Below, in pieces: positions 17,332-64,000 of a stretch of 64,000 bases of DNA. The stretch covers positions 9,465-73,464 of the forward strand of contig JBKQHJ010000244.1 in NCBI GenBank assembly GCA_052148835.1, read 5' to 3'. The translations under genes were made by a program, and so were the position numbers. The notes below the pieces were generated by a model, which saw nothing but the letters and a program-made list of their open reading frames with translations, was not told the origin of the DNA and did no database searches. Position 1 is the first letter of the stretch. Every line of letters starts with the position of its first letter. This stretch comes from Bryobacteraceae bacterium. Lineage in GTDB: Bacteria > Acidobacteriota > Terriglobia > Bryobacterales > Bryobacteraceae.

Positions 17332-18182
17332 TATCCCAGCGAGCCGGGCGCCAGCGAGCCGACCATTTCAACCCACTCGTTCTCGGCGACCCCGGGGCCG
17401 AGACCGCCGAAACGCCGGTCGCGCTTCTGGTATTCCAGAATGGCGTCGAGCAGATCGGCGCGCCCGAAGTCGGGCCACAACGTTTCGGTGACGTATAGCT
17501 CCGCGTAGGCGATCTGCCAAAGCAGAAAGTTGCTGATTCGCATTTCACCCGAGGTCCGGATCAGAAGATCGGGATCCGGAAGGCCCGCCGTGTAAAGCCG
17601 CGACGCGATGGCCTGCTCATCGATGCGCAATTCGCGCAGCCGTCCGGCGAGGCGCGCCTCTTCCAGGATCGAATTGAGTGCGTCCACCAGTTCCGCCCGC
17701 CCACTGTAATTGATGGCGACGTTCAGCCGCATTCCGGTGTTATGCGCGGTGGCCTGGATGGCGGTTTCGAGCTCCTGCCGCACCGGCGCCGGAAGCTCAT
17801 CCATGCGGCCCATGCAAGAGAATCGAATCCCGTTGCGCAGCAGATCCGGAAGTTCGCGGCTTATATAAAGGCGCAGCAATCTCCAGAGCATATCCACTTC
17901 GGCGCGAGGCCGCTTCCAGTTTTCCGCCGAGAACGCGTAGAGGGTCAGCGCCCGGATCCCCAACCGCGTGCAGGTCTCGATCGTGCTCCGGACCGGGTCC
18001 ATGCCGGCTTTGTGTCCCGCCACGCGCGGCAGATTGCGTCTGCGTGCCCAGCGGCCGTTGCCGTCCATGATGATTGCGATGTGTGCCGGCAACCGGCTGG
18101 GATCAATCGATTGGGCGAGCATCCAATCTTTGCTCGCCGGCTTGAGAACCTCAAACAGATCGTCTATGGAACTAGGCGGCAT
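17331..18182 (-). CDS. uppS: isoprenyl transferase (undecaprenyl-diphosphate synthase)
   Basis: HIAIIMDGNGRWA and the FSAENWKRP...LIRTSGEMRISNFLLWQ motifs are present. The stop overlaps the cdsA start by 1 nt. Confidence 0.92.
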   Translation of the reverse strand: MPPSSIDDLFEVLKPASKDWMLAQSIDPSRLPAHIAIIMDGNGRWARRRNLPRVAGHKAGMDPVRSTIETCTRLGIRALTLYAFSAENWKRPRAEVDMLWRLLRLYISRELPDLLRNGIRFSCMGRMDELPAPVRQELETAIQATAHNTGMRLNVAINYSGRAELVDALNSILEEARLAGRLRELRIDEQAIASRLYTAGLPDPDLLIRTSGEMRISNFLLWQIAYAELYVTETLWPDFGRADLLDAILEYQKRDRRFGGLGPGVAENEWVEMVGSLAPGSLG

Positions 18183-49725: not shown

Positions 49726-50154
49726 ATGTCGCAAAACAATTCGTCCAGCGATCGCACAAAACAGCGGCTCACCGACCTGCGCAACGGCTTGCTTAGCCTC
49801 CACAAAACGCTACTCGATTCCGAGCGGGCCACGTACGAGCGCGACATTGCCCGCATCAGCTCGAGCGGCGAGTTATTAAAACTGGTGCTGTACGATCCGT
49901 GGTTTGCGTGGTTGCACGAACTGTCGGAATTTGTGGTGCTGATCGACGAGACGCTGGATGACGAGGAGCCGCCAGGCGGCATCGACGCCGAACGATTCAT
50001 CGAGCAGTCCAAGTATCTGCTGGCACCGAACGAGACGGGCAGCGGATTTGCGAGACGTTATTTTGAGGCGCTGCAGCGCGATCCGGACGTAGTACTGGCC
50101 CACGCCCGAATGCGCAAGGTTCTGACGGGTTTGATGGATCCCGCTGGAGGTTAG
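49726..50154 (+). CDS. hypothetical protein
   Basis: 142-aa ORF with non-biased composition. No family recognised. Confidence 0.5.
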   Translation: MSQNNSSSDRTKQRLTDLRNGLLSLHKTLLDSERATYERDIARISSSGELLKLVLYDPWFAWLHELSEFVVLIDETLDDEEPPGGIDAERFIEQSKYLLAPNETGSGFARRYFEALQRDPDVVLAHARMRKVLTGLMDPAGG

Positions 50155-50903
50155 CTGGGAGACTCAGCTTTTCGGCTCAGGTCCTCGGCAAGAATAATGG
50201 CCTCGGCGAGTTCCTTCATGGGACGGCGCAGGCGCCGGCTCTCGTTGCGAAGGCGCAAATAAGCCTCTTCCTCCGTGAGGCTGTGGCGCTGTTGCAAGAT
50301 GCCTTTGGCGCGTTCAACCAATTTGCGCGTCTCCAGTTGGCGCTTCATCTCCAGGGTTTCTTCCATGAGGCGCGCGTTGGTTTCCGACAGGCTCGATTTG
50401 GCGACCGCGCCGCCCATCTGCTCGCCGATGAAAGTCAACAACGAGATCTCCTCGCCATTGTGATTGTGAATTTGGCGATGGTGCACGTTGATGACCCCGA
50501 TGACATCGCCCCCGCTTACGAGCGGAACCGACAGGAAGGCTTCATAGGTGTCTTCGATCAAGACTTGGAAGCGTTTGAAGCGCGCGTCAGCGCCCGCTTT
50601 GGAAGACAGCGCCACAACGGATTTGTGCTCCGCCACCCATCCAGTGACGCCTTCGCCGACCTTCATGCGTAAGGTTCCGAGCGCGGCCGCGTGAGGCACT
50701 TGCGAGGCGCGCAAAACCACTTCGTCGGTATCGCGATCCAAGAGGTACACTAGACAGGCATCGCAGTCAGTTACTTGAACAGTAAGGCCGACGATCTCTC
50801 CGAGCATTTCGTCAAGTGACAGCTCTGAGCTCACAATATTGCTAATGCGGTGCAGCAAAGCGACATGCGAACCCACGGGCTCCATAATGTGAACGGTTGC
50901 CAT
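50151..50903 (-). CDS. GAF + ANTAR domain RNA-binding regulator
   Basis: N-terminal GAF-like domain and C-terminal ANTAR (LETRKLVERAKGILQQRHSLTEEEAYLRLRNESRRLRRPMKELAEAII). Confidence 0.85.
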   Translation of the reverse strand: MATVHIMEPVGSHVALLHRISNIVSSELSLDEMLGEIVGLTVQVTDCDACLVYLLDRDTDEVVLRASQVPHAAALGTLRMKVGEGVTGWVAEHKSVVALSSKAGADARFKRFQVLIEDTYEAFLSVPLVSGGDVIGVINVHHRQIHNHNGEEISLLTFIGEQMGGAVAKSSLSETNARLMEETLEMKRQLETRKLVERAKGILQQRHSLTEEEAYLRLRNESRRLRRPMKELAEAIILAEDLSRKAESPS

Positions 50904-51060: not shown

Positions 51061-52242
51061 TCAAATATTAACGAGTTTCTGCTGGACTTCGCCGGTAATT
51101 CGCGCCTCGTTTGCGCCCACATAAACGTTGACCTCCGAGCGAATACCAAATTCGGGCAGATAGATGCCGGGCTCGACAGAGAAGCAAGTTCCCGCGATGA
51201 CTCTGCGCTCGTCATGCGTCTCGAGGTTATCCATGTTAGCGCCCGTGCCATGCACTTCCTCGCCGATGGAGTGGCCGGTGCGATGAACGAAGTAATCGCC
51301 GAAGCCGCGATCCTTAATATAGGTCCGGGCGGCATCATCGACCTCAAAACCTTGCAGGACCTCGCCGCGTCGGATGGCGCCCTGGACACGCTGGATGGCG
51401 CGATCGCGAGCGTCACGCACTACTTCGAAAATGTTCTGGAGAGCGGCGGGCGGCGTGCTGCCGCAATAACCGGTCCAAGTAATGTCATAGTACACGGCGG
51501 AAGGGCGATCGAGCTTGGCCCACATGTCGATCAGAACGGCGTCGCCGGCGTGAATCTCGCGGCTGCCTTGCGGGCCTGGTTCATAGTGCGGATCCGACAT
51601 GTTGGCGTTGACGGCGACGATGGGCCCATGATCGGTGACCAAGCCGGAACCTTCGAAGCCGGCTCGGATGAAGCGATTCACGTCCCACTCCGTTAGGACG
51701 CGACCGGCGGCGAGGGTGGCGGCGATTTTCTGGAACGCATCGGCGCGAATTCGGTCGACGCGGCAGCCGGCTTCCAGGTGCATCTCCAATTGCTCGGCCG
51801 TCCAGCGAGCTTCGAAGAGCTGTACGAGATTGGCGGAAGTGGCGATCTCGACACCCGCGCTTCGAACTAATTCGAGCGTTCCGCCATCCACTAGCGACAC
51901 ATAAGGAATGGCGCAGTTGGGCGAATATTGCATGGCGATCCTGCGGCAGCCGGCGACCAATTGGCGGATGCCATCCAACTGAGCAGTCCAACTGGAATAT
52001 TTGCGGACGTTACCGGGCAGCCCGGCCAGGGCCGCGGGTTCGACGGCATGGACCAAGCCCCTCGGTTCGCCATAAGCGGGAATAAAGTAATACCAACGTC
52101 GAGTGGCCACCGCTTTCGGGTTCAGTTTGAGAATTCGATAGGCCAGGGGATCGCGCTGGTGATGGTCAAAGAACAGCCAGCCATCCAAATGTTCCTCTCG
52201 GAGCGCGGCTTGAATTTCCTCGATATGCATGGAAGAACTCAT
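51061..52242 (-). CDS. M24-family Xaa-Pro aminopeptidase/creatinase-like metallopeptidase
   Basis: The start was set at ATG 52242 (ATGA overlap with the Wzt stop). Metal ligands lie in HRTGHSIG...E...E context with a creatinase-like N-terminal domain. Confidence 0.85.
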   Translation of the reverse strand: MSSSMHIEEIQAALREEHLDGWLFFDHHQRDPLAYRILKLNPKAVATRRWYYFIPAYGEPRGLVHAVEPAALAGLPGNVRKYSSWTAQLDGIRQLVAGCRRIAMQYSPNCAIPYVSLVDGGTLELVRSAGVEIATSANLVQLFEARWTAEQLEMHLEAGCRVDRIRADAFQKIAATLAAGRVLTEWDVNRFIRAGFEGSGLVTDHGPIVAVNANMSDPHYEPGPQGSREIHAGDAVLIDMWAKLDRPSAVYYDITWTGYCGSTPPAALQNIFEVVRDARDRAIQRVQGAIRRGEVLQGFEVDDAARTYIKDRGFGDYFVHRTGHSIGEEVHGTGANMDNLETHDERRVIAGTCFSVEPGIYLPEFGIRSEVNVYVGANEARITGEVQQKLVNI

Positions 52243-53516
52243 AAAGTAAGACTGCTGGGTTCCCGATGAGCCGACGGGACAATTCTTTGGTGGCGCACGC
52301 GCGTATTCAAGTTGAGCACGCCCGCGACGTCCTTGGTGTCCTCGACGCGGAAGTCGAGCACATCGTCGAGCCAATCCTGGCTGAGCCCATTCCAATACTG
52401 GACGGCAACGGTGACTGTGTATTCCTGGCGGCTGAGCAAGCAATCCAATTCGAACTCGACTTCGATTTCCTCGCCGGGCTCAAAACGCCCAAGCTCGACG
52501 CGTTCCAGGCGAGTGTTAGTTCCAAAAATGTCCATGCCGATGCGATTACGCACCAGAATGCCCACCACGGGGTTCGAGACAGGCTTTTGAAACATCGCGC
52601 GGATGCGAAGCGTGATGGCGTCTCCGGGGCGGAAAGCGCGGCAGTTCTCGCCCAGGGAGTTGAGTATCCGCACGTCCGTTACGCGGCTGGCGCCGTCGCC
52701 ATGGCGAAAGCTGGTCTTATTCGATATAGGGCTGCTGGATATTGCAGCGACGGATCCTTCTAGTTGGCTGGCGCTTGGTTCCTGAGTGGCGCGCTCGCGA
52801 TCGAGGACGAAGCCGACGTACTGGTTGACGGCGTCTTTGGGAGCGCCTTGCATAACGATCTTTCCATTCAACATGAATGCGGCGCGATCCGCCAGCCGTT
52901 TGATCAAGCCGAGGTCGTGCGACACCAGAAGCACGGTGACGTTCTTGCGGCGAAGTTCCTCGAACTTTTGAACGCACCGACTGGCGAAAATTGCATCGCC
53001 AACGGCGAGCGCCTCATCGACGATCAGCACCTCGGGGTCGACGTGAATGGCGGTCGAAAACGCGAGCCGAACGTACATGCCAGTGGAGTACTCTTTGACC
53101 GGCCGATCGATGAATTGACCGATTTCCGCGAAAGCCTCGATACGCGGAAACACATCGTTCAATTCCCGGCGTGACAATCCAAGGATCTCGCCGTTGAGAT
53201 ACACGTTTTCACGGCCGCTAAATTCAGGATTAAAACCGGCGCCCAGTTCCAAGAGCGCCGCAACGCGGCCGGAGCATAGAACGCGGCCCGTGGTCGGTTG
53301 CAGAATCCCGCTGATCACCTGCAGCAGGGTACTCTTACCGGATCCGTTCGGTCCAAGCACCGCGAATACCTCACCCTTTTCAACGCGCAGGTTGATGTCG
53401 CGGAGAGCCCAGAACTCGGCCTTCTTCTTTCTGGATAAGGCTAACGCGCCCAGGACACGATCGAAGGGATGGTGGTAAAGATGGTAGACCTTCGATACAT
53501 TTTGTACGGAAATCAC
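52239..53516 (-). CDS. Wzt/TagH-type polysaccharide-export ABC ATPase with C-terminal Wzt_C-like domain; no partner permease in window
   Basis: Walker A GPNGSGKST, signature YSTGM and Walker B LIVDEA. A C-terminal extension of about 170 aa resembles the glycan-binding Wzt C domain. GTG start. Confidence 0.85.
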   Translation of the reverse strand: MISVQNVSKVYHLYHHPFDRVLGALALSRKKKAEFWALRDINLRVEKGEVFAVLGPNGSGKSTLLQVISGILQPTTGRVLCSGRVAALLELGAGFNPEFSGRENVYLNGEILGLSRRELNDVFPRIEAFAEIGQFIDRPVKEYSTGMYVRLAFSTAIHVDPEVLIVDEALAVGDAIFASRCVQKFEELRRKNVTVLLVSHDLGLIKRLADRAAFMLNGKIVMQGAPKDAVNQYVGFVLDRERATQEPSASQLEGSVAAISSSPISNKTSFRHGDGASRVTDVRILNSLGENCRAFRPGDAITLRIRAMFQKPVSNPVVGILVRNRIGMDIFGTNTRLERVELGRFEPGEEIEVEFELDCLLSRQEYTVTVAVQYWNGLSQDWLDDVLDFRVEDTKDVAGVLNLNTRVRHQRIVPSAHREPSSLTL

Positions 53517-53560: not shown

Positions 53561-56326
53561 CTAGCCGAGTTGTGCGCTTCGCCGCATTCCGCGCGAGAGA
53601 GGTAGCGGGTAACCGATCAGACACAGTTGATCGAGTGCAAAAAGAACGACGGATTCGAATCCTTCTCCCTCGGCAAGTCTCACCTCTTTGAGCCAAGCCG
53701 TAGACGAATCGCTGACACCCACTAAATGACTCCGCTGTGAGGGCGTGAACCCAAGACTGTTCACCGAATTCATCGATAAGTAGCTCTGGCCTAAGTTGCG
53801 ATCGTAAGTATAAGTGAAGCTCTCTGTCTTCAAGCAATTCAGATTGGCAGGAGTCCAGTCATTGGTTGGATAGTTAATGACCTGAGTAAGAGGGAACGCA
53901 TTCACGTCGGGAGGATAAAGCACTTCGAACCTGCAGCTTGGATACGTAACCCGAACGAATGCGCGGATCTGGGCGGTGAAGCTGCCGATCAAGCTGGGCA
54001 GAAATGCAGTTTCCTGTGGAACCGTTGTGGGGACGACGGTGTTGCTGGTGATTACGGTCATTGGACGGCCATACTGCGTTTGAAATGTGGTGGTGGTGTA
54101 AGCATCGTAGAAAGGCATGCCCGAACCGTCGTCAGGAAAATACCACCACTGCACTTCGCCAAACTGCAGATACGGCGTTAACCCCGCGGCGTTCATCACG
54201 GTCGCCATGTCCAAATACACTTGCTGCCAAAAAGCCAGACTCGTTGGCGAGAAATTAGTTTGTAGCGCGGGAGTGCTAACGATTACGGCAACCCCATCGG
54301 GATAACGTTGCGCGATACCGGCGGCTACCGAAGGATCGCCGTTTCCAAGTTCCGTGCTAAATGACGCGGTCGCGTCGAATCCATAGCCCCGAAGGGCTTG
54401 ACAATAGCTTTGCGTCCAGTCGCGCACTGCTCGGTTGATGCGAGGCATGGCCTCCAGATCGGTGTACCAATTGCCGTCCACGCCGCCTGAGAATGTATTC
54501 ACTCCGGAGGTCGTGGCGATCCCAGACAACGTGATCGTCAAGTTCGTGGTGTTGGCACTGGTCGCGATCGTGATGGTATTGCCATCCGTACCCATCGCTC
54601 GCGAATAGATGGTGAGTTGACTGCCACTGGCCTGCGCCCATATCCCTGTATATCCGTTATTCAATAGAAGCACAAAGGCCGTCGCCAGGGTTTCGGTGGT
54701 GTCCCCGATGAGATTCAGATGCTCGATCGTAGTGTCCGTCGAGGACGGCTGGCCGTAAGTGCCCAAAATAATTTGCGTAATCAGATTCGGGTCCGGAGAC
54801 CCGGAAAACGTTATGGTCGCGGATGCATATTGCTGGCCCACGCATGTTAGTTCATAAAACCACAATGCACCTACATAGTGATTCACCCGAGCCTGAAAGC
54901 CGAGCGAATAAATCATCCACGCCGTGCGTTCCGGCGCCAGTGCTTGGGAATGCAATGTATCCCAATCCGTCGCCGCTGTAAGTTTCGCCTCATTCGTCTC
55001 AGTGGGTAGCATGGTGGCAGGAACCGCGATTTCGAAAAAGTCAAAATAGAAATACGTACCGCTGCCGCCATTATGCGTTGCCGTGACGGTGTGCGTGCCC
55101 GATGCTAGCTGGCCCAATAAAGTGCGGATAAGAACGTCTTCGCCGGGAACATTCAGGTTTACAGCAATCGCACTTCCTCCATCCACAACAACGGAGATTA
55201 GCGTGCCGGAGTCCGCCAGCCTGGTTCCTAAGTACAGCGAGTGAGACTGCGAGAACGTGTAAGTACAGCTAACACTAGATTCGGGCAAGCTGGTGTAATG
55301 AATGGTGCCGCCGGAAAAGTTTCCGCCCGAGCTGGCCCAGGTACCCACATAAACCAATTGATTCGAATCGTCCTCTATGCGCTGACTGCCAGGTCCGGCA
55401 ATCGAGTATTCCTGCCCACTGCCGCTGACGGTCCAATTGGATACCACTACCTGAAACTCACTTCGAACGAAAACGCCAGCTTGCAATGGCGCCGAATAAG
55501 TCCATCGCAGCTTCCGGATCGCCGTGGCTGGAACGAGTCCGAGCGCGGGATCTGATAGAGTCGCGAAGGGCAGCGTAATTTGCCACTGCGTTGGCGACGT
55601 ACCGCCAGCAAAAAGTCTCCACGGCGCGTCCCACTGCTCTGTTTGGCTGCCCGAAACGTAAGTATAGGCGCCGATGGAATTTCCGTTTGCTCCCGTCGTG
55701 CTGATTGTCGGGCGACCCGCACCGACATACGTAATCGTGATCGTAGCGCCGTCGGCAGTAGCTGTCATCGTCGGCGAAAAAGCATTGATCCCCGCGACAA
55801 TGTTTTGAATCGCGAAAGCCACCGTGTCGCCGGGGTTCATCTGATATGGATAGTGCTCTGACAAGAATCCGATTCCGACATAGTCCTCAGCCGTTACGGT
55901 TCCACTCAAAGTGAATTGAACCGTGGCGGATTGATAGCTGCCCGCGACGGGAGTCGCATAACTCGGACTCGCAAGAGGGATCTGGTAAATTTGTTCCCCG
56001 CTCCCACTATTGGCCCAGATTCTAAGAGTAGGCCAGGCAACCGTGGGATACAAATCGGAATCCAGCGGGATGCAGTTGTTTCTTGTCTCCTGATAACTTA
56101 GTGTCAGGCCACTGAGATCGCCGTCGGGAAGATAGCGAAATGCGGGATGTTCAAATACGTTGTCGCGGTTCCATTCGATCACCGCCCAATCAAATTGCTG
56201 GCGCCAGGTGCCGGAGACGGTAAATCCCGTCGCGCTTGTTGCGCTTAGTGCTGCGACTGCTGATGGCTCGAAGAAGTAGCATTGCAGATCCCGGTCGGGT
56301 TGCAGCTTTTGCAGAATTTCGGACAT
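53561..56326 (-). CDS. distal tail/receptor-binding-type protein, possibly with carbohydrate-binding and TIM-barrel-like (GTA_TIM-like) domains
   Basis: 921 aa, last gene of the tail module. The mid-region (YVGTWASSGGNFSGGTIHYTS...THTVTATHNGGSGTYFYFDFFEI) resembles CBM/jelly-roll modules. The C-terminal half (..LQFGEVQWWYF..) is reminiscent of the RcGTA g15 TIM-barrel-like domain. Assignments are weak. Confidence 0.55.
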   Translation of the reverse strand: MSEILQKLQPDRDLQCYFFEPSAVAALSATSATGFTVSGTWRQQFDWAVIEWNRDNVFEHPAFRYLPDGDLSGLTLSYQETRNNCIPLDSDLYPTVAWPTLRIWANSGSGEQIYQIPLASPSYATPVAGSYQSATVQFTLSGTVTAEDYVGIGFLSEHYPYQMNPGDTVAFAIQNIVAGINAFSPTMTATADGATITITYVGAGRPTISTTGANGNSIGAYTYVSGSQTEQWDAPWRLFAGGTSPTQWQITLPFATLSDPALGLVPATAIRKLRWTYSAPLQAGVFVRSEFQVVVSNWTVSGSGQEYSIAGPGSQRIEDDSNQLVYVGTWASSGGNFSGGTIHYTSLPESSVSCTYTFSQSHSLYLGTRLADSGTLISVVVDGGSAIAVNLNVPGEDVLIRTLLGQLASGTHTVTATHNGGSGTYFYFDFFEIAVPATMLPTETNEAKLTAATDWDTLHSQALAPERTAWMIYSLGFQARVNHYVGALWFYELTCVGQQYASATITFSGSPDPNLITQIILGTYGQPSSTDTTIEHLNLIGDTTETLATAFVLLLNNGYTGIWAQASGSQLTIYSRAMGTDGNTITIATSANTTNLTITLSGIATTSGVNTFSGGVDGNWYTDLEAMPRINRAVRDWTQSYCQALRGYGFDATASFSTELGNGDPSVAAGIAQRYPDGVAVIVSTPALQTNFSPTSLAFWQQVYLDMATVMNAAGLTPYLQFGEVQWWYFPDDGSGMPFYDAYTTTTFQTQYGRPMTVITSNTVVPTTVPQETAFLPSLIGSFTAQIRAFVRVTYPSCRFEVLYPPDVNAFPLTQVINYPTNDWTPANLNCLKTESFTYTYDRNLGQSYLSMNSVNSLGFTPSQRSHLVGVSDSSTAWLKEVRLAEGEGFESVVLFALDQLCLIGYPLPLSRGMRRSAQLG

Positions 56327-56338
56327 GCCTCAAAATGT

Positions 56339-59300
56339 TTACAGTCGAATCGTGACCGTCAAGTTGCTACCAGGCGCCGTGTTTGACGTCTGAACCACGG
56401 ATGTAATGTTCAGACCAATGATTGCCTGAGCCTGCAAAGGTCCGAGCGCAAAGCCATCCACATCGTTAGACACAGTCGCGCCCGTTGGAATAGTAAGTTC
56501 GCAGTAGACTTGGCCGTTCTGGGTCACTTGCATGATGACAGGCGCTCCCGAAGGTGCGTCTTGCACCACGGCATAAACATCCCGCACCGAACAAGTTGTC
56601 TCCACTAAAAGTGGTGGCGCCGCGTTGGTCTGAATTGCCAGGGCGCCCTCCACTTGAATTGTCAGTTGTCCTCCCAAGAGACTTCGAAGACCCAAATCCG
56701 TCGTGCTTGTGAACGATTCGGCGGCGACGCTGCTGTTACCCCGCGAATTCGTCATGAATAACCCCGCGGCCGCAATCCGAACGTCGGGAATCGTGATCGG
56801 AAATGCGTAACTCCCGCTCGCCGGACTCCCAAACAAGTCCTGCGCAAATGACATGACGAAGATCTTTTCCGCAAGAAAGTACACCCCCGTTAAAGCGGTA
56901 TGTGCCACAGCAGTCGTGCCATAAGTAGCGCGAGTAACAGACACACTAGTGCCACTGGTCAGGCTTTGCTGAACAACCATAACTTCAGCGTCTATCTGCA
57001 CTAAGGCGCCGCTCACCGCCGATACCGCTGTCGCCACCGTGAAAGACGTATCGGTTGCGGCCATCGGAGCGCTAAGCAAAACCGTAGAAGGCCCTTGCAG
57101 CTCATCCCAATAAGCGAGCGTCAAGGTGCCGGCGCTGATCGATCGCGTATTAGTCAAGTCGGAAAAACCGATCCCGAGTACCTCAATGCTGCCAGCCCCG
57201 ATTGGATAGAGGCCAAATATCGGCTGGCCTGGAACGTCGGTGTCCAGAGCTTGGCCGGTAGCGCCCAAAATTGTCCATCGAGTTAGTGGTGACAATTCGT
57301 AAGCGCACTCCTCGTCCATCACATTCGCAGCGCGCCCGGAAACATCAATTGTCACGCCTTCTCGATTCGGAACTGTAAAGCTCACCGGCGACGCATTACT
57401 CGAAGCTCCAAACTGCCAAGTGGACTCCGCTATCAGGAAGAAACTCGTAGCGTCCGGTGCCACGCTCCATTGCCGCGTGATCGTGAGAGTACTCGCAGTG
57501 TTGGATGCGACCGTTTGTTCCTGACCTACTCCAGTGCCTGCCGTGATTCGCACTGTTGCGCCGTTGTAAAGACTCGGCACCATGTTCAGTGTGCTATTGC
57601 CAACGGTCGTTCCCGAAAATATATTCGCTTGCTCGGGTGGTTGGAGTTCCAAGCGCCAATAGAAATTGGCGTGATCGTAATTGTAGTCCGGAGGCCCTTG
57701 CAACGACGCGCCGAATCCCGAATCCACAAATTGGGCGGCAATTGGCACACCACTCGCGATTCGCAAGATCTGCGTAGGATTAAAACCCCGATAAACATTG
57801 AAAGAGCTGGCTGTGGACGAAACACTGAGACTTACAAGGGTAACCGTATTTGTGCTCGTTCCAGCTGGGACACTCGCCATGGCAACAAATGAGAGGCCAC
57901 CCTCGGCTCCGTTCGCATCCACCGCGCTAATTGCGTAATAGAAAACTAGTCCGCCTGGCAAGGTTCCGCCGCTGTTGTTCACCTGAGGATTGAGCCCGAT
58001 CAGAGGAATGCCTGCCAAACTTGCTTGTGGTTCTGCCGGAACAGAAAAGGAAACCGACAAATTCTCGGTAACCGTGCCATCCGTGCCCGTGGTTGATGTT
58101 TCGGCAATCCCAAACTGTTCCACGCCGTTGCTATCCAGAAGGCTACCCACTAGTGGCCTGGGCAGCCCCAGTTCGAAGTCGGGCTGACGCCCCAAAGTAG
58201 CTGAATCCGAGTTGACAGCGGTGTACCAAGCGTCGTCGTGAATCTGTGCAGTGATCACGACCGTAAGAAAGTTGACTCCGGGGGATAGCTTGCTAATTCG
58301 GAACGGCTGACGGCTGAAGCCCTCCCGTGCGTACGTAAGGGTAATGATGTCGCCCGGTGCAAGGCCGACGCCTTTTACGCTTGTCTCAAATTCTATGTAC
58401 GTATTGCCATAAACCGACTTATATAATTGAAGCGCTGTTGCCCGATTGGCTTGATCGAAATTCGGCAGGCCGAGTGCCGTCAACGAAGCTGTAACATCTT
58501 GCCCTGTTATCACGAGATCATCGACGGCCACTAACGATAGGCTGTCTTGTTGATAGTCATTGAATTCATCCTGGAACTCGACGGTATAGTGATTCGGCGT
58601 ATTGGCTGTGCTCGTCGTTGTCACCGTCACTGATGACGCACCGTTCGCGTTGCGTGCGATCCCTGAAAAAGTGCTGTCGTCGCTAAATTCGTAAGCAGGC
58701 CATCCGCCGTCGAGGACTTCCGTGCTATTACTGCCAGGCGGCATCGTTGGTTGTTGGTTCGCCAGAGTATCTTCAGCGTTCAATTGAACCAGGCCATTGG
58801 AATCACAGTTTAGGTACAGCGCCGACCCGTTCCGAATGCCTCGAACCACATCCCCCGCACTCCGGCGGTTTGTCAGTAAAAGATTACATTGATAACGAGG
58901 AATCGTAGTGCTATTCCCGTTGACGTCCACGGTAGGGATGAGCGCATCGCATCTTGCGGCCGCCGCCCCGAAACTTCCGAGATTTAAGAGCGTCTGCTCC
59001 CAACCACTGCGCAATAGAACATCCAACATCACCCAGGCTGCATTGTTAGTGTAGACCGTATTCTCATAATTGCCGCTGGTGTCGAATTGCGCAAGCTGAA
59101 GCCCTTGAATCAGGACATCGATGACCGGGAGTGATGTCCCATTGGAAATCCAATTGGGTACGACGACCGACATAAATGCCATGCTGCCGTATGGATCGCC
59201 CAACGGCTGTCCGGCAGAATTGCTGAAGTCCGGATTGAAGGCGCCATTTCTGGTTCCGTAACTAATGACGTTGTACCAGCCCGTCGCCGTCATATTCGTC

Positions 59301-60262
59301 CCACTTACGCCAAGCGGGATCTGGGTGTTATTCACAACCACCGTGATAACGCTGCTAATCTGTCCAATTCCGAGCAGCACCTCGAAATGCGTCAGATTCC
59401 CGTCGTTTCTCGCCAGCACAATCGGAGGCTGATACCATCCCGTTCCGTAGATTAGCGGCACGAAGTCGTTATAAAGCGCTTGATTCGGGAGAGGTATGGA
59501 TACTTGGGATGTTTTCGATCCATAACTTCGCACAATAATCGACGCCGGAACGAACTCAATTCCGCCAAACCTACGTGTCACATTATTCTGGTTGTCGGTG
59601 TCGAACATCCCCCGTTGCTGGCATTGCGCGCGCGAGTAATCGCAGGACGTATAGGGCGTGCTTCCGTTCATGTTTCCCACGCCCCCGGTTTGATCCGCCG
59701 AATATCCACATTGATAGAAAGGCGAAAAGGCCCCTTCCGTTCCGCCATTGACCGCTTCTTGTCGTTGCGCAGCCGTGCTAGGAAACTTCCAGGGGCACAG
59801 CTTCTGAATGTAGACTTCAGGTAAGTACACACGCTGTAAGTTCAGCCGGTTTGTGAAGCTAAGACGCAGTGTCGATTCAGTAGATTGATCTGGCGGGTTC
59901 GCGATTCCCCGGAACACTACCTGGCTGTTTGAGGCCACCGCCTGATTCTTCAAATCGTAAAACAAGAACGTCACCGCCAACGCAGAGCCTTTCCACCCTA
60001 TGTTGCGTTCAATCGAAGATAGAAACGCGTCCGCATTGGCAAGTGTGATGGATACTGTCGACGCGCCATCCGTCGCACTTTCCGGACTGGAGTTTAGATC
60101 GAAGAGGTTATGTTTCAGCACCCGGCTCAAATACTGCGTCCCATTGACGGTGACGTTGTGAGTACTCCAACTCTGCACATCGCCAGTCGGTAGCGTGCAA
60201 TCGAACAGAAGGAGCGGCGTTCCGGGAACTTCCTGCTCTTTCAGAACGTTGATCGGTGTCAT
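56339..60262 (-). CDS. tail-tip hub protein: gpL/DUF2163-like N-terminal domain with 4-Cys cluster fused to gpJ-like (Phage-tail_3) central-fibre protein
   Basis: 1307 aa. Four Cys lie within about 60 aa (LCPWKF, YQCGYS, TSCDYSRAQCQQRG). The J-like block is VIDVLIQGLQL...NNAAWVMLDVLLRSGW...RYQCNLLLTNRRSAGDVVRGI. FN3-like segments follow. Confidence 0.7.
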   Translation of the reverse strand: MTPINVLKEQEVPGTPLLLFDCTLPTGDVQSWSTHNVTVNGTQYLSRVLKHNLFDLNSSPESATDGASTVSITLANADAFLSSIERNIGWKGSALAVTFLFYDLKNQAVASNSQVVFRGIANPPDQSTESTLRLSFTNRLNLQRVYLPEVYIQKLCPWKFPSTAAQRQEAVNGGTEGAFSPFYQCGYSADQTGGVGNMNGSTPYTSCDYSRAQCQQRGMFDTDNQNNVTRRFGGIEFVPASIIVRSYGSKTSQVSIPLPNQALYNDFVPLIYGTGWYQPPIVLARNDGNLTHFEVLLGIGQISSVITVVVNNTQIPLGVSGTNMTATGWYNVISYGTRNGAFNPDFSNSAGQPLGDPYGSMAFMSVVVPNWISNGTSLPVIDVLIQGLQLAQFDTSGNYENTVYTNNAAWVMLDVLLRSGWEQTLLNLGSFGAAAARCDALIPTVDVNGNSTTIPRYQCNLLLTNRRSAGDVVRGIRNGSALYLNCDSNGLVQLNAEDTLANQQPTMPPGSNSTEVLDGGWPAYEFSDDSTFSGIARNANGASSVTVTTTSTANTPNHYTVEFQDEFNDYQQDSLSLVAVDDLVITGQDVTASLTALGLPNFDQANRATALQLYKSVYGNTYIEFETSVKGVGLAPGDIITLTYAREGFSRQPFRISKLSPGVNFLTVVITAQIHDDAWYTAVNSDSATLGRQPDFELGLPRPLVGSLLDSNGVEQFGIAETSTTGTDGTVTENLSVSFSVPAEPQASLAGIPLIGLNPQVNNSGGTLPGGLVFYYAISAVDANGAEGGLSFVAMASVPAGTSTNTVTLVSLSVSSTASSFNVYRGFNPTQILRIASGVPIAAQFVDSGFGASLQGPPDYNYDHANFYWRLELQPPEQANIFSGTTVGNSTLNMVPSLYNGATVRITAGTGVGQEQTVASNTASTLTITRQWSVAPDATSFFLIAESTWQFGASSNASPVSFTVPNREGVTIDVSGRAANVMDEECAYELSPLTRWTILGATGQALDTDVPGQPIFGLYPIGAGSIEVLGIGFSDLTNTRSISAGTLTLAYWDELQGPSTVLLSAPMAATDTSFTVATAVSAVSGALVQIDAEVMVVQQSLTSGTSVSVTRATYGTTAVAHTALTGVYFLAEKIFVMSFAQDLFGSPASGSYAFPITIPDVRIAAAGLFMTNSRGNSSVAAESFTSTTDLGLRSLLGGQLTIQVEGALAIQTNAAPPLLVETTCSVRDVYAVVQDAPSGAPVIMQVTQNGQVYCELTIPTGATVSNDVDGFALGPLQAQAIIGLNITSVVQTSNTAPGSNLTVTIRL

Positions 60263-60284
60263 TCAAGGAGATCCGCTGCCCAGT

Positions 60285-61079
60285 TCAATTCAAATTGCTG
60301 ATCAAGCCGAGTTGACAAGCGTTTTGATTCACCGCGCTCGCCGTGAAAGCAAGTAAGTCGGATGAGAATCGCGTGTTCGAATAGACACCACCGAGGTCGA
60401 TTGTCCTCTTGTACAGTCCTGCCTCAGGCTGTGCCTCCACTTGTGCCCCGAAGACGTTCACTTGTGCGCCGGCCGGCAGTTCCACTCCAAACCCGACACT
60501 GTCCTGCTGAACCGAAAGACTCGTCGAGGTTGTGACTCGAGCCCATGTCACCCCAGCCGTGACAGCCGTCAATGACGTCTGGCCGCTGGCCGTCATAACT
60601 AATTGAATTACCGTCGGCACATTGCTCCTGACATACACGCTGTAGCAGTACACAAACGAACTTGGACCCGCTGTGTTCTGAACGATCTGTTGCGTCGCCT
60701 GAGCGGTGTTCGTTAACTGCATCCCTGCGCTGTTTCCAAACGGGTCCTGCACACCCCCCGCCACTTGCAACAGCGGATCTGCCGTCCATACTGGCTGCGT
60801 CCAATCTTCGCTCCACATCAACAGATTGTCTGTGGGATCCAAGAAGGTAAAGGTATTGAGTTGACCCTCGCTGGCTTCGAACAAGCTCTCTATCGACGAC
60901 CGTTCCCCATCGGTGAGATTCGAATATCGAAGCTGCCATTGCACCTTCTGCCAGCCCAAATCGGCCATCCGTATTGTGAAACCACTTGGAAGCTGATTGG
61001 CGACCGTTCGCATTTTGACACCTCGTGTCACGGGAAACTGCGAGACCGCGCCGGTAGTAAGCTGCGGATAGTAAAGCAT
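60285..61079 (-). CDS. distal tail protein paralog 2 (DUF2460-like N-domain) with C-terminal carbohydrate-binding-module-like domain
   Basis: The N-terminal 95 aa or so are paralogous to the 61081..61440 product (YPQLTTGAVSQFP...FTFLDPTDN). The C-terminal 170 aa or so end in the tail-fibre-type motif VNVFGAQVEAQPEAGLYKRT. Confidence 0.6.
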   Translation of the reverse strand: MLYYPQLTTGAVSQFPVTRGVKMRTVANQLPSGFTIRMADLGWQKVQWQLRYSNLTDGERSSIESLFEASEGQLNTFTFLDPTDNLLMWSEDWTQPVWTADPLLQVAGGVQDPFGNSAGMQLTNTAQATQQIVQNTAGPSSFVYCYSVYVRSNVPTVIQLVMTASGQTSLTAVTAGVTWARVTTSTSLSVQQDSVGFGVELPAGAQVNVFGAQVEAQPEAGLYKRTIDLGGVYSNTRFSSDLLAFTASAVNQNACQLGLISNLN

Positions 61080-61080
61080 G

Positions 61081-61440
61081 TCAGTTTCCGTTCTCCAGTA
61101 CTGTCAACGATGCCTCTCCATTCCATTCCCCCTCTAACACGGCGGTCATGCTATCGCTTCCTAGGCTGCAGCTTGCATAGGTCGTCCCGTCCCAGGGATC
61201 GGTGAATCCAAAATTTTCAGCGCGGCCCTCCACGGACCGAAAAAACTCCTGCAGCTCTTGCAGCTCCGCCTGATCCAGCAAACTAAGCTGGATCGTCCAG
61301 TGGTGGAGAGACGCTTGGTAACTCCTGAAACGCTGCTCCGCTCCGTCGACAAACTGCAAGGCCACCGTCGAAAACTGAACGTTTCGCTGCGCCGGATACT
61401 GCGTCACAGCGCCGGTTTTCAACGTCGGAAACGTGCTCAT
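61081..61440 (-). CDS. distal tail protein paralog 1 (DUF2460/RcGTA g12-like, lambda gpM position)
   Basis: 119 aa. FPTLKTGAVTQYP...DGAEQRF...ELQELQEFFRSVEGRAENFGFTDPWDG follows the DUF2460 pattern as I recall it. Lies immediately after the tape-measure candidate. Confidence 0.6.
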   Translation of the reverse strand: MSTFPTLKTGAVTQYPAQRNVQFSTVALQFVDGAEQRFRSYQASLHHWTIQLSLLDQAELQELQEFFRSVEGRAENFGFTDPWDGTTYASCSLGSDSMTAVLEGEWNGEASLTVLENGN

Positions 61441-61442
61441 AA

Positions 61443-62132
61443 TTAAAGGTCGGAAATCACATCGTTCAAAGAACTTGAGTTCAAGATCGCCTGTTTCACC
61501 GCCATCGCAATGTCGTCGCTGTGATCTAGAAACGACTGGCTGTCCATTGCGTTCACCTGAATGGTGACCTGTGGCGGCGCGCTCGACGACTGTGCGCGTG
61601 CCTGGCCTGTTGCTCCATAACTAACCGGCACCACTTGCCCAGGCGCGCTCGACGTAAGTCCTGCCTCTGACTGCGCTGGCGCCGGCAACATGAATGGCAG
61701 TGGTACCGCAAGCGTCTGGCCTCCCCCACCCCCGAACAAACTCAGGAGTCCTCCCAGCAACGGCGACAGGCTGCTCAGACCTCCTCCTAAGAAGCTCGAC
61801 GCCGCACTTTCAGCGGTGCTGGCCACCGAAGACCCGCTGCTCGTCTTCGTCGTCGTATTCTGCGTTACGGCTTGCGTATTGTCCTGCAAGGCGCTGATCT
61901 GTTCTTGTTGCGCCGAGGTAAGACCGCTGATCTGCGTCGCGAGTGAGCTCAATTGTTCGGTAACGTCAGAGTTGCTGCCTTGAGCCACATCCCCGATTGA
62001 ACTGTTGGCGGCGCCGGTATCTCCGGCCCCGGCAGTCCCAGTCGACGCGGCCAGCTGTCCGAGTAAGTCACTTCGAGTCGTACTCCCAGCGCTGCTCGCG
62101 GGCAGCAGATCCTCCCACTTACTTCTGGCCAT
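61443..62132 (-). CDS. short tape-measure-protein candidate
   Basis: 229 aa, in the position directly after the chaperone frameshift pair. S/T/A-rich, with a coiled-coil-like centre (LSSLATQISGLTSAQQEQISALQDNTQ) and a Gly-rich hydrophobic segment (FLGGGLSSLSPLLGGLLSLFGGGGG). Confidence 0.55.
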   Translation of the reverse strand: MARSKWEDLLPASSAGSTTRSDLLGQLAASTGTAGAGDTGAANSSIGDVAQGSNSDVTEQLSSLATQISGLTSAQQEQISALQDNTQAVTQNTTTKTSSGSSVASTAESAASSFLGGGLSSLSPLLGGLLSLFGGGGGQTLAVPLPFMLPAPAQSEAGLTSSAPGQVVPVSYGATGQARAQSSSAPPQVTIQVNAMDSQSFLDHSDDIAMAVKQAILNSSSLNDVISDL

Positions 62133-62457
62133 CTTCGGTTTCCGCCCTCAGTTCGTTCTCCAAGATAAAGATTGCCTCCACCAGGCGCGCGGGCAAGTCG
62201 TAATAACCGCCCGCGCCTAGAAGCTTCCACGCGTGAAATTCCTCTAACAACGCGACGCTCTCAGACGTGATGTAGGACGTCGGACAGCTACACAGCGTCG
62301 TTCGTCCCCGAGCCCAAACAATCGCGGCGCTTGTGGCCTCATCATGCACCAGCCAGCCACATCGCCGCCTTTTTTCCAGACCGCTCTTTCTGCACGCGTC
62401 GCACCTCCATGCGGCCTTGTTTCCAAATTGAAAATGGAATGCGACGATTAGTTTTTT
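62119..62457 (-). CDS. -1 frame extension of the tail assembly chaperone (lambda gpT-like part of a G-T fusion, about 256 aa in total)
   Basis: The -1 frame is open from 62481 to 62119 and is entered at the heptamer A AAA AAC (62457..62451). Its stop overlaps the tape-measure start by 14 nt. No plausible independent RBS was noticed. Confidence 0.55.
   Translation of the reverse strand, partial: KKLIVAFHFQFGNKAAWRCDACRKSGLEKRRRCGWLVHDEATSAAIVWARGRTTLCSCPTSYITSESVALLEEFHAWKLLGAGGYYDLPARLVEAIFILENELRAETEDGQK
62397..62446 (-). other. possible frameshift-stimulating stem-loop 4 nt downstream of the slippery site
   Basis: On the minus strand, CGUCGCA (62446..62440) pairs with UGCGACG (62403..62397). 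A nested UUCCA/UGGAA hairpin lies at 62439..62435 and 62425..62421. Confidence 0.3.
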
Positions 62458-62891
62458 CTTTCGCCCTCGCTCAGTCCGCACTGCGCTTTAATCGCACTAA
62501 TTACCTCGCGTACTAGCTCTTCTGGGCCCTTTTCCAAGAACCGCTCAGCGGTGGCTGGCTCCCCATCGATGACCATGCCTGTGATACTTACAAGCCCCCA
62601 TTGTAAGTACATCGCGTCGATTTCTTGAGCCAGAATGTTCGCTTCGATCTTTTCGTGTACCTCAGTGCCGGCCTCCAGGAACTCCGCCCTTCGGCTCAGT
62701 TCCCGCACCCGCCTGCTCAATTCCATCCGCCGCCCGAACGAGATGCGGTGGATAGCGAACCTGACTCCTTGTGCGGCCTTGGAATCGAACGAAATTATGC
62801 TTTCGTACCGCACGGCTCCCTTTGGAGCGACTCCATCTGCGCCTTCCACCTCGCTGGCTCGCTTACCCAAACGCGACATAAATTTCATCAT
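62448..62891 (-). CDS. tail assembly chaperone (lambda gpG-like, zero-frame product)
   Basis: 147 aa and acidic, located between the tube gene and the tape-measure gene. It ends ...GAA AGA AAA AAC TAA, and a -1 ORF overlaps its 3' end. Confidence 0.65.
   Translation of the reverse strand: MMKFMSRLGKRASEVEGADGVAPKGAVRYESIISFDSKAAQGVRFAIHRISFGRRMELSRRVRELSRRAEFLEAGTEVHEKIEANILAQEIDAMYLQWGLVSITGMVIDGEPATAERFLEKGPEELVREVISAIKAQCGLSEGERKN
62451..62457 (-). other. programmed -1 ribosomal frameshift slippery heptamer A AAA AAC
   Basis: The plus strand reads GTTTTTT at 62451..62457. On the minus strand the zero frame is AGA AAA AAC TAA and the -1 frame is AAG AAA AAA CTA. This fits X XXY YYZ exactly. 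Confidence 0.6.
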
Positions 62892-63996
62892 TCACGCTTC
62901 CTTGCGCCCGGCAGCTTTGAAATTGCCATTGTTGTCGCTTATCGGAATCGTCAAAAGCCGGTACCTCCGGCACGACGCTCTGCATGTAGACGCCAAATAG
63001 CTCGCCCTGCTGCTGGCCAAGTTGCATCATCAAGCTTATGGGCGACCTTTGGCGGGCGGCCTGATAGAGAGCTGCCGTCGCTGCATCGTCCATTTGATAA
63101 AGACTGAAGTTGATGGATACCGTTCGCTGTCCAGGCGAAATCGCAAGAGGTAATATGGCGCCATACTCACGCGCCCTCAACTCGAGATTATTTGCGAACG
63201 TGACAGTTGCGCCAGTCAAGGTGAAAAACTGCGTCGGCGAGCTTCCCAGCCAGACCTCTCCCAGATTTCCCGGGATAATCGAATAGTTGATCGGCGCCAC
63301 GGCCGGCTCCGCCGGATACGTCGCTAATCCGAACTGTTCGCTCGCAAAGCTGGAGGTGTCCACCAAATCTTGCGCTTGCCCGCTGAAGTCGAACTCGTGG
63401 AAGTCGCCGTTGACTTTAATCGACAGCGTGTCTACTGCCATTCCGCCGACTATCCGCTGCACTGCCGTCGTGGGACTCCAGTAGTCGTAAAATGTAACGC
63501 TCGGCAGGTTCTCGGATAGCGGGTACAGCGCCGTCGGTCCTGTTTGCGAACTCGCGGCCGGAGTTACTGAAAAGGGCGCATTGAGTTGAATCGTATCGGC
63601 GTCCACTACTACCGTCACGAAACGTATTTCTCCGCCGCTAGTTACTGCTGCCCCCGGTGTCAGACCATGCGGCGCTGCGAACGCCAGTGTCGAACCGCCA
63701 CTCGCACTTGCAACCGTGCCTCCCGCCGATTGCGTGGGCGATCCTCCAAAACACGCCTGAAATAATGGCCCATGAGGGGGCAGCGTGCTCGTATCGGCCC
63801 AGCTCGCCATGTACGTTTTTAGCCCGAAGCTGGTCTGTCTCCGGAGCCCGCTGGGATTCCCCGCGAACGTTCTCGACCCGGTCTTGTCCGCGCGTTGAAC
63901 CTTCTCGACCTGCTGTTTGGTCGTTAGCTTCACGGCGGGAATTCGGTTGCTCGCGCTAATCGCAGCGGCAGCACCATAGCTTTGCTCCAGAGCCAC
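62863..63996 (-). CDS. major tail (tube) protein candidate, large type; 5' end may lie beyond the window
   Basis: At least 377 aa, in the position directly upstream of the chaperone pair. Beta-rich, Ala/Ser/Thr/Gly-rich composition. The frame is still open at position 64000, so the GTG at 63996 is only the first start visible in the window. Confidence 0.6.
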   Translation of the reverse strand: MALEQSYGAAAAISASNRIPAVKLTTKQQVEKVQRADKTGSRTFAGNPSGLRRQTSFGLKTYMASWADTSTLPPHGPLFQACFGGSPTQSAGGTVASASGGSTLAFAAPHGLTPGAAVTSGGEIRFVTVVVDADTIQLNAPFSVTPAASSQTGPTALYPLSENLPSVTFYDYWSPTTAVQRIVGGMAVDTLSIKVNGDFHEFDFSGQAQDLVDTSSFASEQFGLATYPAEPAVAPINYSIIPGNLGEVWLGSSPTQFFTLTGATVTFANNLELRAREYGAILPLAISPGQRTVSINFSLYQMDDAATAALYQAARQRSPISLMMQLGQQQGELFGVYMQSVVPEVPAFDDSDKRQQWQFQSCRAQGSVNDEIYVAFG

Positions 63997-64000
63997 GTAG

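Follow-up and report, generated by a model that had tools for sequence, protein, structure and literature searches.

The gene transfer agent (GTA) of Rhodobacter capsulatus, RcGTA (with its alphaproteobacterial relatives, Rhodogtaviriformidae), is encoded by a block of about 15–17 kb comprising head, packaging and tail genes, with lysis and regulation located outside of it. The block is flanked by host genes, inherited vertically and maintained by purifying selection, and its tiny first gene overlaps the large terminase gene. In its tail part, the tape measure is short, DUF2460 occurs in a distal tail protein, and a large distal protein carries a Phage-tail_3 domain. PBSX of Bacillus, too, is fixed in the chromosome and does not propagate; its particle has a contractile tail and a head into which host DNA is packaged, and the encoding block of about 28 kb includes its own regulators and lysis genes. 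Described here is a block of phage-derived genes located at the right end of a 64,000-nt stretch of DNA from a Bryobacteraceae bacterium of the phylum Acidobacteriota (assembly GCA_052148835.1, contig JBKQHJ010000244.1, positions 9,465–73,464; this whole stretch is referred to below as the window). The block is a strong candidate for a new, independently domesticated GTA.

A preliminary description of the window had reported eight minus-strand tail genes in the canonical siphovirus order and offered three readings: GTA-like, tailocin-like or defective prophage. All of the open reading frames (ORFs) were confirmed at their coordinates. They form the tail half of a 15-gene, 16.7-kb block, the rest of which lies beyond the window end. 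The block contains head, DNA-packaging and tail genes only, and is thus purely structural. Judged from its sequence, it encodes a domesticated phage-derived particle (viriform), which was acquired from a siphovirus by an ancestor of today's Bryobacterales and then inherited vertically under strong purifying selection, the replication, integration, lysogeny and lysis modules having been lost or never kept. Among the three readings the GTA-like one is favoured, though not as a relative of RcGTA. Such a GTA-like domestication of a vertically inherited, structural-only block is the best reading and is considered rather probable. The detection of GTAs outside Alphaproteobacteria has been described as an open problem, since GTAs resemble defective prophages (2024 review, PMC11841831). 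The block shows the signature that separates the two: a structural-only gene set, a fixed locus, co-divergence with the host and purifying selection.

Gene content and borders of the block

The region past the window end was read from a 99,972-bp metagenome contig (ENA ERZ27241255 k141_252616), which differs from the window by 1 base in 17,662. On this source contig, an AMP-binding host gene is followed by a spacer of about 195 nt, the 15 genes, a spacer of 44 nt and a Wzt-type gene. The block starts with genes for a small protein (g01), the large terminase, the portal, a scaffold, a P22-type coat and three connector-sized proteins, and continues with the tube (g09), a chaperone with a -1 frameshift (g10), the tape measure (g11), two DUF2460 proteins (g12 and g13), the hub (g14) and g15. 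The head and packaging part, located beyond the window end, comprises:

g01, 85 aa, same strand as the tube gene: conserved small protein, overlapping the start of the large terminase
Large terminase, 433 aa: Terminase_6N and Terminase_6C domains; PHROG 2, E 3.5e-38
Portal, 466 aa: PHROG 145, E 1.6e-53
Scaffold-like protein, 187 aa: precedes the coat gene
Coat, 303 aa: P22_CoatProtein, E 5.6e-19; PHROG 283, E 7e-42
Three connector-sized proteins, 153, 255 and 108 aa: between the coat and the tube

The terminase translation keeps the Walker A (GSGKS) and hhhhDE motifs intact. The conserved core of g01 reads ...TLADFIRLTQLERELE..EQPREIIVTW; its position makes it a possible small terminase, and no recognisable pac/cos-specific small terminase is present among the block genes. 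The block contains no prohead protease gene, and the coat is not of the HK97 type. Sequence searches against solved structures with the tube, g07, g08 and g13 returned chance-level matches only.

An F-type tailocin, i.e., a tail-only bacteriocin, would be consistent with what is visible in the window, where only tail genes are present and end against host genes. However, terminase, portal, scaffold and coat genes are located directly upstream in the same operon and are kept in every complete locus. This conservation of head and packaging genes excludes the tailocin-like reading of the preliminary description, and the probability left to it is negligible.

The upstream border of the block is formed by the end of the AMP-binding (acyl-CoA synthetase-type) gene, which is preceded by an S9 peptidase gene. 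At the downstream border the following gene is located:

52239..53516, minus strand: Wzt-type ABC ATPase (Pfam ABC_tran and Wzt_C), the downstream boundary gene

The type and strand of this gene are as previously described, while its start lies 44 nt, not 45 nt, past the last tail gene, g15. Downstream of it are genes for an M24 peptidase, a GAF-ANTAR protein, MoxR, DUF58 and VWA proteins, with no phage functions, in line with the earlier remark that lysis, integrase, repressor and replication genes are missing there. Window positions from 1 to about 20,400 carry ordinary metabolic genes; the flank annotation covers this left part and the region from about 46 kb onward. Neither in the block nor in its flanks on the source contig were integrase, repressor, replication or lysis genes found, and no att-like repeats were found at the block borders. 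Extension of the contig thus revealed capsid, scaffold, portal and terminase genes, and no protease, integrase or att repeats. Instead of the remainder of a temperate phage genome, host genes follow the head module, and the presence of host genes on both flanks excludes an ordinary prophage.

The block resembles RcGTA in its gene order, the tiny first gene overlapping the terminase, host flanks and a short tape measure, as well as in the presence of DUF2460 (PF09343 in g12 and g13) and Phage-tail_3 (PF13550 in g14). In contrast to RcGTA, it occurs in a different phylum, encodes a P22-type coat and a scaffold rather than an HK97-type coat and a protease, and contains no DUF2163 or BR0599 domains. 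Its tube is a 389-aa double-domain protein, whereas that of RcGTA is a single-domain protein of about 130–140 aa, the chains of which match one domain with E 0.045–0.07. No sequence match was found between the block proteins searched and RcGTA chains in the PDB. The link to RcGTA-type agents drawn in the preliminary description therefore holds for DUF2460, Phage-tail_3 and the short tape measure, but not for the P22-type coat, the pb6-type tube and the missing DUF2163. Taken together, this points to a block that is analogous rather than homologous to RcGTA, save for shared tail-tip domains, and to an independent domestication.

Distribution, conservation and selection

At the 90% identity level, homologues of the tube protein form more than 2000 clusters, of about 389 aa, on contigs of up to 1 Mb. 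The best 120 clusters are 78–100% identical, all of about 389 aa, and many of them are located on contigs of 0.1–1 Mb. Tube relatives are encoded in 308 species-representative genomes (GTDB, one genome per species), and the locus comparisons rest on the best 80 of these. Nearly all of the 80 are labelled as Bryobacterales, Bryobacteraceae or Solibacteraceae, whereas the labels of the remainder are acidobacterial at a broader level; the label of one reads Terriglobales. Together with the NCBI entry of the same tube protein under a Bryobacteraceae metagenome-assembled genome (MAG), this agrees with the acidobacterial host supposed earlier. One tube homologue (P0361) is labelled as a Rhodospirillales MAG, all others being acidobacterial; the label is probably a binning error, with horizontal spread as the alternative. 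There are no cultured isolates among the named tube homologues.

Searches by tblastn with all element and flank proteins showed that every complete locus holds all block genes, with coat identities of 76–96% and tube identities of 54–85% across loci. The block spans 16.1–16.6 kb, and the lengths of its products are near-invariant: 433 aa for the terminase, 303 for the coat, 389–391 for the tube, about 119 for g12 and about 1306 for g14. The comparison of related genomes suggested by the preliminary description thus gave the same genes and lengths in the examined loci of a block whose tube gene has relatives in 308 species genomes.

The ratio of nonsynonymous to synonymous divergence (dN/dS) was calculated pairwise by the Nei–Gojobori method for 13 of the nearer loci, at dS of 1–2, which is close to saturation. 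The median values are 0.03–0.13 for 14 genes and 0.30 for g01, with 0.105 for the host AMP-binding gene. Some of the strongest constraint (0.03–0.05) falls on the terminase, portal and coat, which argues that filled heads, not tails alone, are the selected product. The distances between block proteins track those of Wzt (r 0.80–0.88) and of the AMP-binding gene (r 0.80–0.93; Mantel p <= 0.0005).

These data bear on the possibility that the block is an inactive prophage remnant in decay. The missing early, lysogeny and lysis modules and a few loci with interrupted ORFs would fit such a remnant. However, all 15 genes are intact and of near-identical length in about 80 species at dS of 1–2, dN/dS is as low as 0.03–0.13 for 14 of the 15 genes, a frameshift signal persists in 76 of 77 loci, and near-identical nucleotide sequences across hosts, as expected from recent spread, were not seen. 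Selection and intactness across saturated divergence exclude a decaying remnant, and the defective-prophage reading does not stand in view of the order-wide conservation, the near-invariant lengths and the low median dN/dS; very little probability is assigned to it. The loci concerned are L014, L032, L066, L068 and L086, and also L009, L013, L018 and L034. Several loci, all from MAGs with the "MFD" isolate prefix, have interrupted block ORFs, and the flanking host gene is truncated in other loci of this MAG series. Since the host gene is truncated too in the same MAG set, assembly error is sufficient to account for the interruptions, which possibly stem from assembly or long-read indel error rather than from decay.

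The surroundings of the block are conserved unequally. The Wzt gene is located 10–116 nt behind the last block gene in most loci, while the AMP-binding gene borders the block upstream in the nearer clade only. Distant genomes have different host genes at this place, ordinary metabolic ones, for example those for MFS transporters, TPP enzymes, asparagine synthase and SurA, and no integrase is present among the families listed for 79 flank ORFs of distant loci.

The block is also widely represented in virus databases: at least 381 viral contigs of IMG/VR carry it, as determined by tube matches. The longest of the 80 contigs shown are of about 16–21 kb; many have a length of 16.3–16.8 kb, and in these the tube gene lies some 6.2 kb away from one of the ends (the contigs examined were L087–L166 and L171–L248). 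Judging from these sizes and the tube position only, they are probably provirus calls trimmed to the block.

The block could also be a still-mobile minimal virus or satellite-like element that would depend on host or helper functions to replicate and integrate, and would package its own genome of 16.7 kb. The capsid may be large enough for this length, at least 381 IMG/VR viral contigs are of about 16–17 kb, the composition of the block is unlike that of the host, and the upstream neighbours differ between distant clades. On the other hand, an integrase, att repeats and a replication initiator were not found, nor was a small terminase recognisable as pac/cos-specific; the same downstream neighbour occurs at 10–116 nt across the order, the block diverges in step with the host genes that flank it, and the IMG/VR contigs fit, judging from their sizes only, trimmed provirus calls. 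Phage satellites (PICI and similar elements), with few or no tail genes, differ from the block, which has no integrase, replication initiator or helper-interference genes and possesses a full set of head and tail genes. An element of this kind is therefore considered improbable.

Tail genes, phage relatives and the leader

The tail genes and associated features located in the window, all on the minus strand, are as follows:

62863..64000, true start about 64032: tube g09, 389 aa, first 11 codons past the window end
62448..62888: chaperone g10, 146 aa, between the tube and the tape measure, slippery site at its end
62451..62457: -1 frameshift heptamer A_AAA_AAC, in frame, 7 nt before the g10 stop
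62119..62457: -1 frame extension of g10 (GT-like fusion), about 110 extra codons, overlapping the tape measure start
61443..62132: tape measure g11, 229 aa, canonical tape measure position
61081..61440: distal tail paralogue 1 (g12), 119 aa, DUF2460 N-domain only; PF09343, E 4.4e-13
60285..61079: distal tail paralogue 2 (g13), 264 aa, DUF2460 N-domain and an extra C-terminal domain
56339..60262: hub or central fibre g14, 1307 aa, gpJ / T5 pb3 type
53561..56326: distal accessory protein g15, 921 aa, C-terminal TIM barrel

From the tube gene onward, the spacing comprises a 26-nt overlap followed by gaps of 2, 1, 22 and 12 nt.

The tube candidate of the preliminary description, the gene of which runs 32 nt past the window end, matches the tail family PHROG 290 (E 2.6e-18). 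Its AlphaFold2 model, built from a diverse alignment, reached a pLDDT of 90.3 and a pTM of 0.88, replacing a first model from 24 close homologues that was discarded at a pLDDT of 31. The best Foldseek matches of this model are the tubes of T5 (pb6), DT57C, P74-26 and SH-Ab15497 (E 1e-15 to 1e-13, or 1e-15 to 6e-14 for the first three; probability 1.0, TM about 0.6), while single-domain tubes, including that of RcGTA, match one half of it with E 0.01–0.07. The pb6 match (E about 1e-15) upholds the assignment to phage tails. In addition, PF18906 was detected in some tube homologues, and NCBI names one homologue "phage tail tube protein." The modelled fold indicates a non-contractile tail of the T5 type, the tube being a fused double-domain protein.

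No family match was found for g10 in family searches. Its 3' end reads ...G AGA AAA AAC TAA, which places the slippery heptamer noted earlier in frame, and an in-frame A_AAA_AAC or A_AAA_AAT is kept in 76 of 77 loci, 7 nt before the stop in almost all. In most of the 76 heptamer loci, the -1 ORF of about 110 codons ends at or near the tape measure start; the gene caller had split this extension into 76-aa or 120-aa ORFs. Its position and slippery site identify g10 as the predicted tail assembly chaperone, a counterpart of lambda gpG.

Likewise, g11 occupies the canonical position of the tape measure. Residues 170–228 align with the C-terminus (1111–1167) of a 1172-aa free-phage tape measure (E 7e-7), and the C-terminal end also matches PHROG 3779 weakly. 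This alignment indicates that the 229-aa protein is indeed a tape measure, shortened about fivefold. Its length is roughly 180–250 aa in all intact loci. The shortened g11 predicts a short tail, with a length of roughly 35 nm.

The two DUF2460-like distal tail proteins reported earlier were both supported by Pfam. Besides the g12 match, g13 matches PF09343 (E 1.3e-7) as well as PHROGs 2913 and 1302 (distal tail protein); a profile search with g13 against solved structures found nothing. The length of g12 is 114–121 aa in nearly all loci. The hub g14 contains Phage-tail_3 (PF13550) in 35 of 35 orthologues and matches PHROG 31 "central tail fiber J" (E 2e-22), and its profile matches "Tip attachment protein J" (9e7m, 2.5e-7) and T5 pb3 (7zhj, 1.2e-5). 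Of the combined gpL-like and gpJ-like hub proposed previously, the gpJ part thus stands, while the gpL/DUF2163-like N-terminus was found in none of the 35 orthologues, the only extra being one marginal DUF6013 match.

In the last tail protein, g15, the TIM-barrel family PF23845 was detected in all 31 orthologues searched and PF23844 in 18 of them, the PF23844 match of the window protein being weak; no other families, and in particular no BR0599 domain, were found. Its profile matches 9lc0_M "Gp64" over the TIM barrel (E 3e-8), and it is likely a glycan-binding or glycan-cleaving receptor module. Matches among GenBank phages are weak, with 24% identity to Phapecoctavirus proteins, some of which are annotated as "non-contractile tail sheath." The Pfam name of PF23845/PF23844, "non-contractile tail sheath protein," was rejected as evidence of a sheath, being an annotation label the origin of which was not traced in the literature, and the earlier observation that no sheath gene is visible is correct. 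The g15 gene is absent in one subclade (L055, L059, L062, L069, L070, L071, L076 and L078), which indicates that it is an accessory, exchangeable module; in L059, which was inspected directly, Wzt starts 42 nt after g14 (17515–17557).

The tails of T5, DT57C and P74-26 resemble that of the block in the fused double-domain tube, and the hub of the block resembles pb3 and gpJ. The tape measure of T5 is much longer than 229 aa, and the block differs from T5-like tails in its short tape measure, two DUF2460 proteins and a TIM-barrel protein, as well as in the absence of phage early genes. The tube family is small at 50% clustering (550 representatives at E <= 1e-3, 115 at E <= 1e-30), and a tblastn search of the tube against 50,697 GenBank phage records gave no match. 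The most distant full-length tube relatives are located in phage-like contigs encoding SSB, Acb2/Tad1, an RNase T-type exonuclease, endonuclease VII and HTH_17. Two of these contigs, L167 and L168, encode a tube of the same family as that of the block (E 1e-25 to 1e-32), match its coat and portal PHROGs, and share with it the homologous tape measure C-terminus and the order of tube, chaperones, tape measure, 122-aa protein, 271-aa protein and gpJ-like fibre; a third one, L169, shares the tube family. In contrast to the block, all three carry SSB, Acb2, exonuclease, endonuclease VII and HTH_17 genes, and in L167 and L168 the tape measure comprises 1172 aa and the fibre more than 2000 aa. The Acb2/Tad1-type gene of the three contigs is an anti-CBASS gene. 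As the nearest free-phage relatives found, L167, L168 and L169 are candidates for the ancestral phage lineage.

The GC content of the tail block is 0.52–0.57 in 1-kb windows, so that the dip reported in the preliminary description is real but milder than the hand counts of 42–53%. Over the whole cluster it is 0.552 (4-kb windows), compared with 0.595 +/- 0.010 for host DNA within the window, and the tetranucleotide correlation to the host composition is 0.65–0.88 for the block against 0.88–0.97 for host segments. Across 56 loci, the GC gap between block and host averages only 1–2 points. The most deviant tetranucleotide profile (r 0.65–0.78) belongs to the hub and distal-protein region, window positions 54000–62000, despite the age of the element; the suspected cause is the Ser/Thr/Gly/Asn-rich proteins encoded there rather than recent arrival.

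Directly in front of the first gene, the following element was found:

L003 (source contig) 2466–2630, about 70259–70423 in window numbering: conserved leader of about 150 nt with a strong intrinsic terminator at its end, directly 5' of g01

On the source contig, the hairpin GGGCGCTTCC-CGAAAA-GGGGGCGCCC is followed by seven T and ends about 9 nt before the g01 ATG. An equivalent hairpin and T-run are present at the same place in 33 loci, including those with unrelated upstream genes, and the distance from the T-run to the ATG is 10–17 nt in most of them. The stem sequence differs in the more distant clade yet still pairs, and in the hairpin alignment 91% of cells are paired, compared with 49–64% in slid controls; RNAalifold on a MAFFT alignment recovered the terminator stem only in part. 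Conserved boxes located 5' of the hairpin are GTGACAG, GTTTTCAG..TTAG and TGATAGA-TTGGTGCAGGAGAGAGTTG. Single-sequence folds 5' of the terminator disagree on structure, and therefore no riboswitch-like fold is claimed; the leader has no Rfam family. A sigma-70 scan of the leader gave no promoter, and a sigma-54 reading of the conserved TGGTGCAGGAGAGAGTTGC box was rejected since its GG–GC spacing is four bases too long by hand count. The 10–17 nt between the T-run and the ATG leave no room for a promoter, so transcription of the operon must pass the terminator. From this arrangement, we infer that the operon is controlled by attenuation or antitermination.

A speculative candidate for a factor acting at this terminator is encoded nearby:

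50151..50903, minus strand: GAF-ANTAR protein, three genes downstream of the block

ANTAR domains are RNA-binding antiterminators. By tblastn, the gene was not found in the loci lacking g15, which alone reach far enough downstream. At the other end of the block, no terminator-like site was found between g15 and Wzt, and a sigma-70 scan revealed no promoter in front of Wzt, which may be co-transcribed with the block or functionally tied to it. Wzt is a lone ATPase with no adjoining Wzm permease.

Proposed function and implications

If the block encodes a GTA, its expression could be switched on in a subpopulation by read-through of the conserved intrinsic terminator, which would sit between any possible promoter and g01. 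The terminase would then fill heads with host DNA, and short-tailed particles would be released by lysis genes located elsewhere in the genome. These particles could attach to related cells via the hub and TIM-barrel proteins and deliver the DNA.

The most serious alternative, although a distinctly less probable one, is a domesticated particle with another function, such as a PBSX-like killer that packages host DNA without productive delivery, a DNA-release device or a means of attacking competitors. The evidence for domestication (distribution, lengths, dN/dS and co-divergence) fits a particle not involved in transfer equally well, and the g15 TIM-barrel protein and gpJ-type hub could serve delivery or killing alike. 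However, dN/dS values of 0.03–0.05 for the terminase, portal and coat indicate that DNA packaging itself is under selection. Moreover, the block differs from PBSX in its non-contractile tail and in the absence of regulators and lysis genes from the cluster.

Several observations weigh against the GTA-like reading. The function is deduced wholly from gene content and evolution, the particle being known here from genes alone, and nearly all data come from MAGs, with broken ORFs in a few loci. Lysis genes and regulators were not located in the window and its flanks, unlinked loci not having been searched. In this genome the block is still compositionally distinct, in both GC content (0.552 vs 0.595) and tetranucleotide correlation (r 0.65–0.88), and upstream synteny is lost in the more distant clades, where rare relocation is possible. 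Free-phage relatives whose coat has the same size (296 aa) are located on contigs of at least 26 kb; the head may thus exceed a capacity of 16.7 kb, and the GTA hallmark of a head too small for its own genes may not apply.

Collinear, widespread proviruses specific to Bryobacterales have been newly reported as "group (i)" (Demina et al., 2025; PMC11924767), with hosts including Ca. Solibacter usitatus Ellin6076, strain KBS 96 and Paludibaculum fermentans P105. They were treated as proviruses and as evidence of lysogeny, and gene transfer agents are never mentioned in that work. This group is probably identical to the block described here; its named IMG/VR entries are not among the 80 loci listed. 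No literature linking gene transfer agents with the Bryobacterales/Acidobacteria lineage was found in the library searched. In purified peat viromes, much unexplained microbial DNA was detected and GTAs were suspected, with screening limited to the five known types (Trubl et al., 2018; PMC6172770).

The fullest form of the proposal is that the block is the sixth independently evolved GTA and the first in Acidobacteriota, of an age sufficient for it to be shared by much of Bryobacterales, with a P22-type head, a shortened T5-type tail and a terminator read-through switch, which moves host DNA among soil and peat bacteria and makes up part of the "microbial" DNA of viromes. In this form it is put forward tentatively, at slightly less than even weight.

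GTAs are known from only a handful of lineages, and the block provides a lead in a phylum that ranks among the most abundant in soil. Bryobacterales are available in culture, and what is probably this block has been reported in some of the cultured strains (PMC11924767). Since IMG/VR files copies of the block as viral genomes, the virome and lysogeny statistics of Bryobacteraceae may be inflated by a non-viral element; in work on peat and tundra, sequences of this type are counted as proviruses of Bryobacteraceae and taken to show lysogeny (PMC11924767). If the proposal is true in its fullest form, host DNA would be carried by the particles between abundant bacteria of soil and peat, and some of the "microbial" DNA in purified soil viromes would stem from them.

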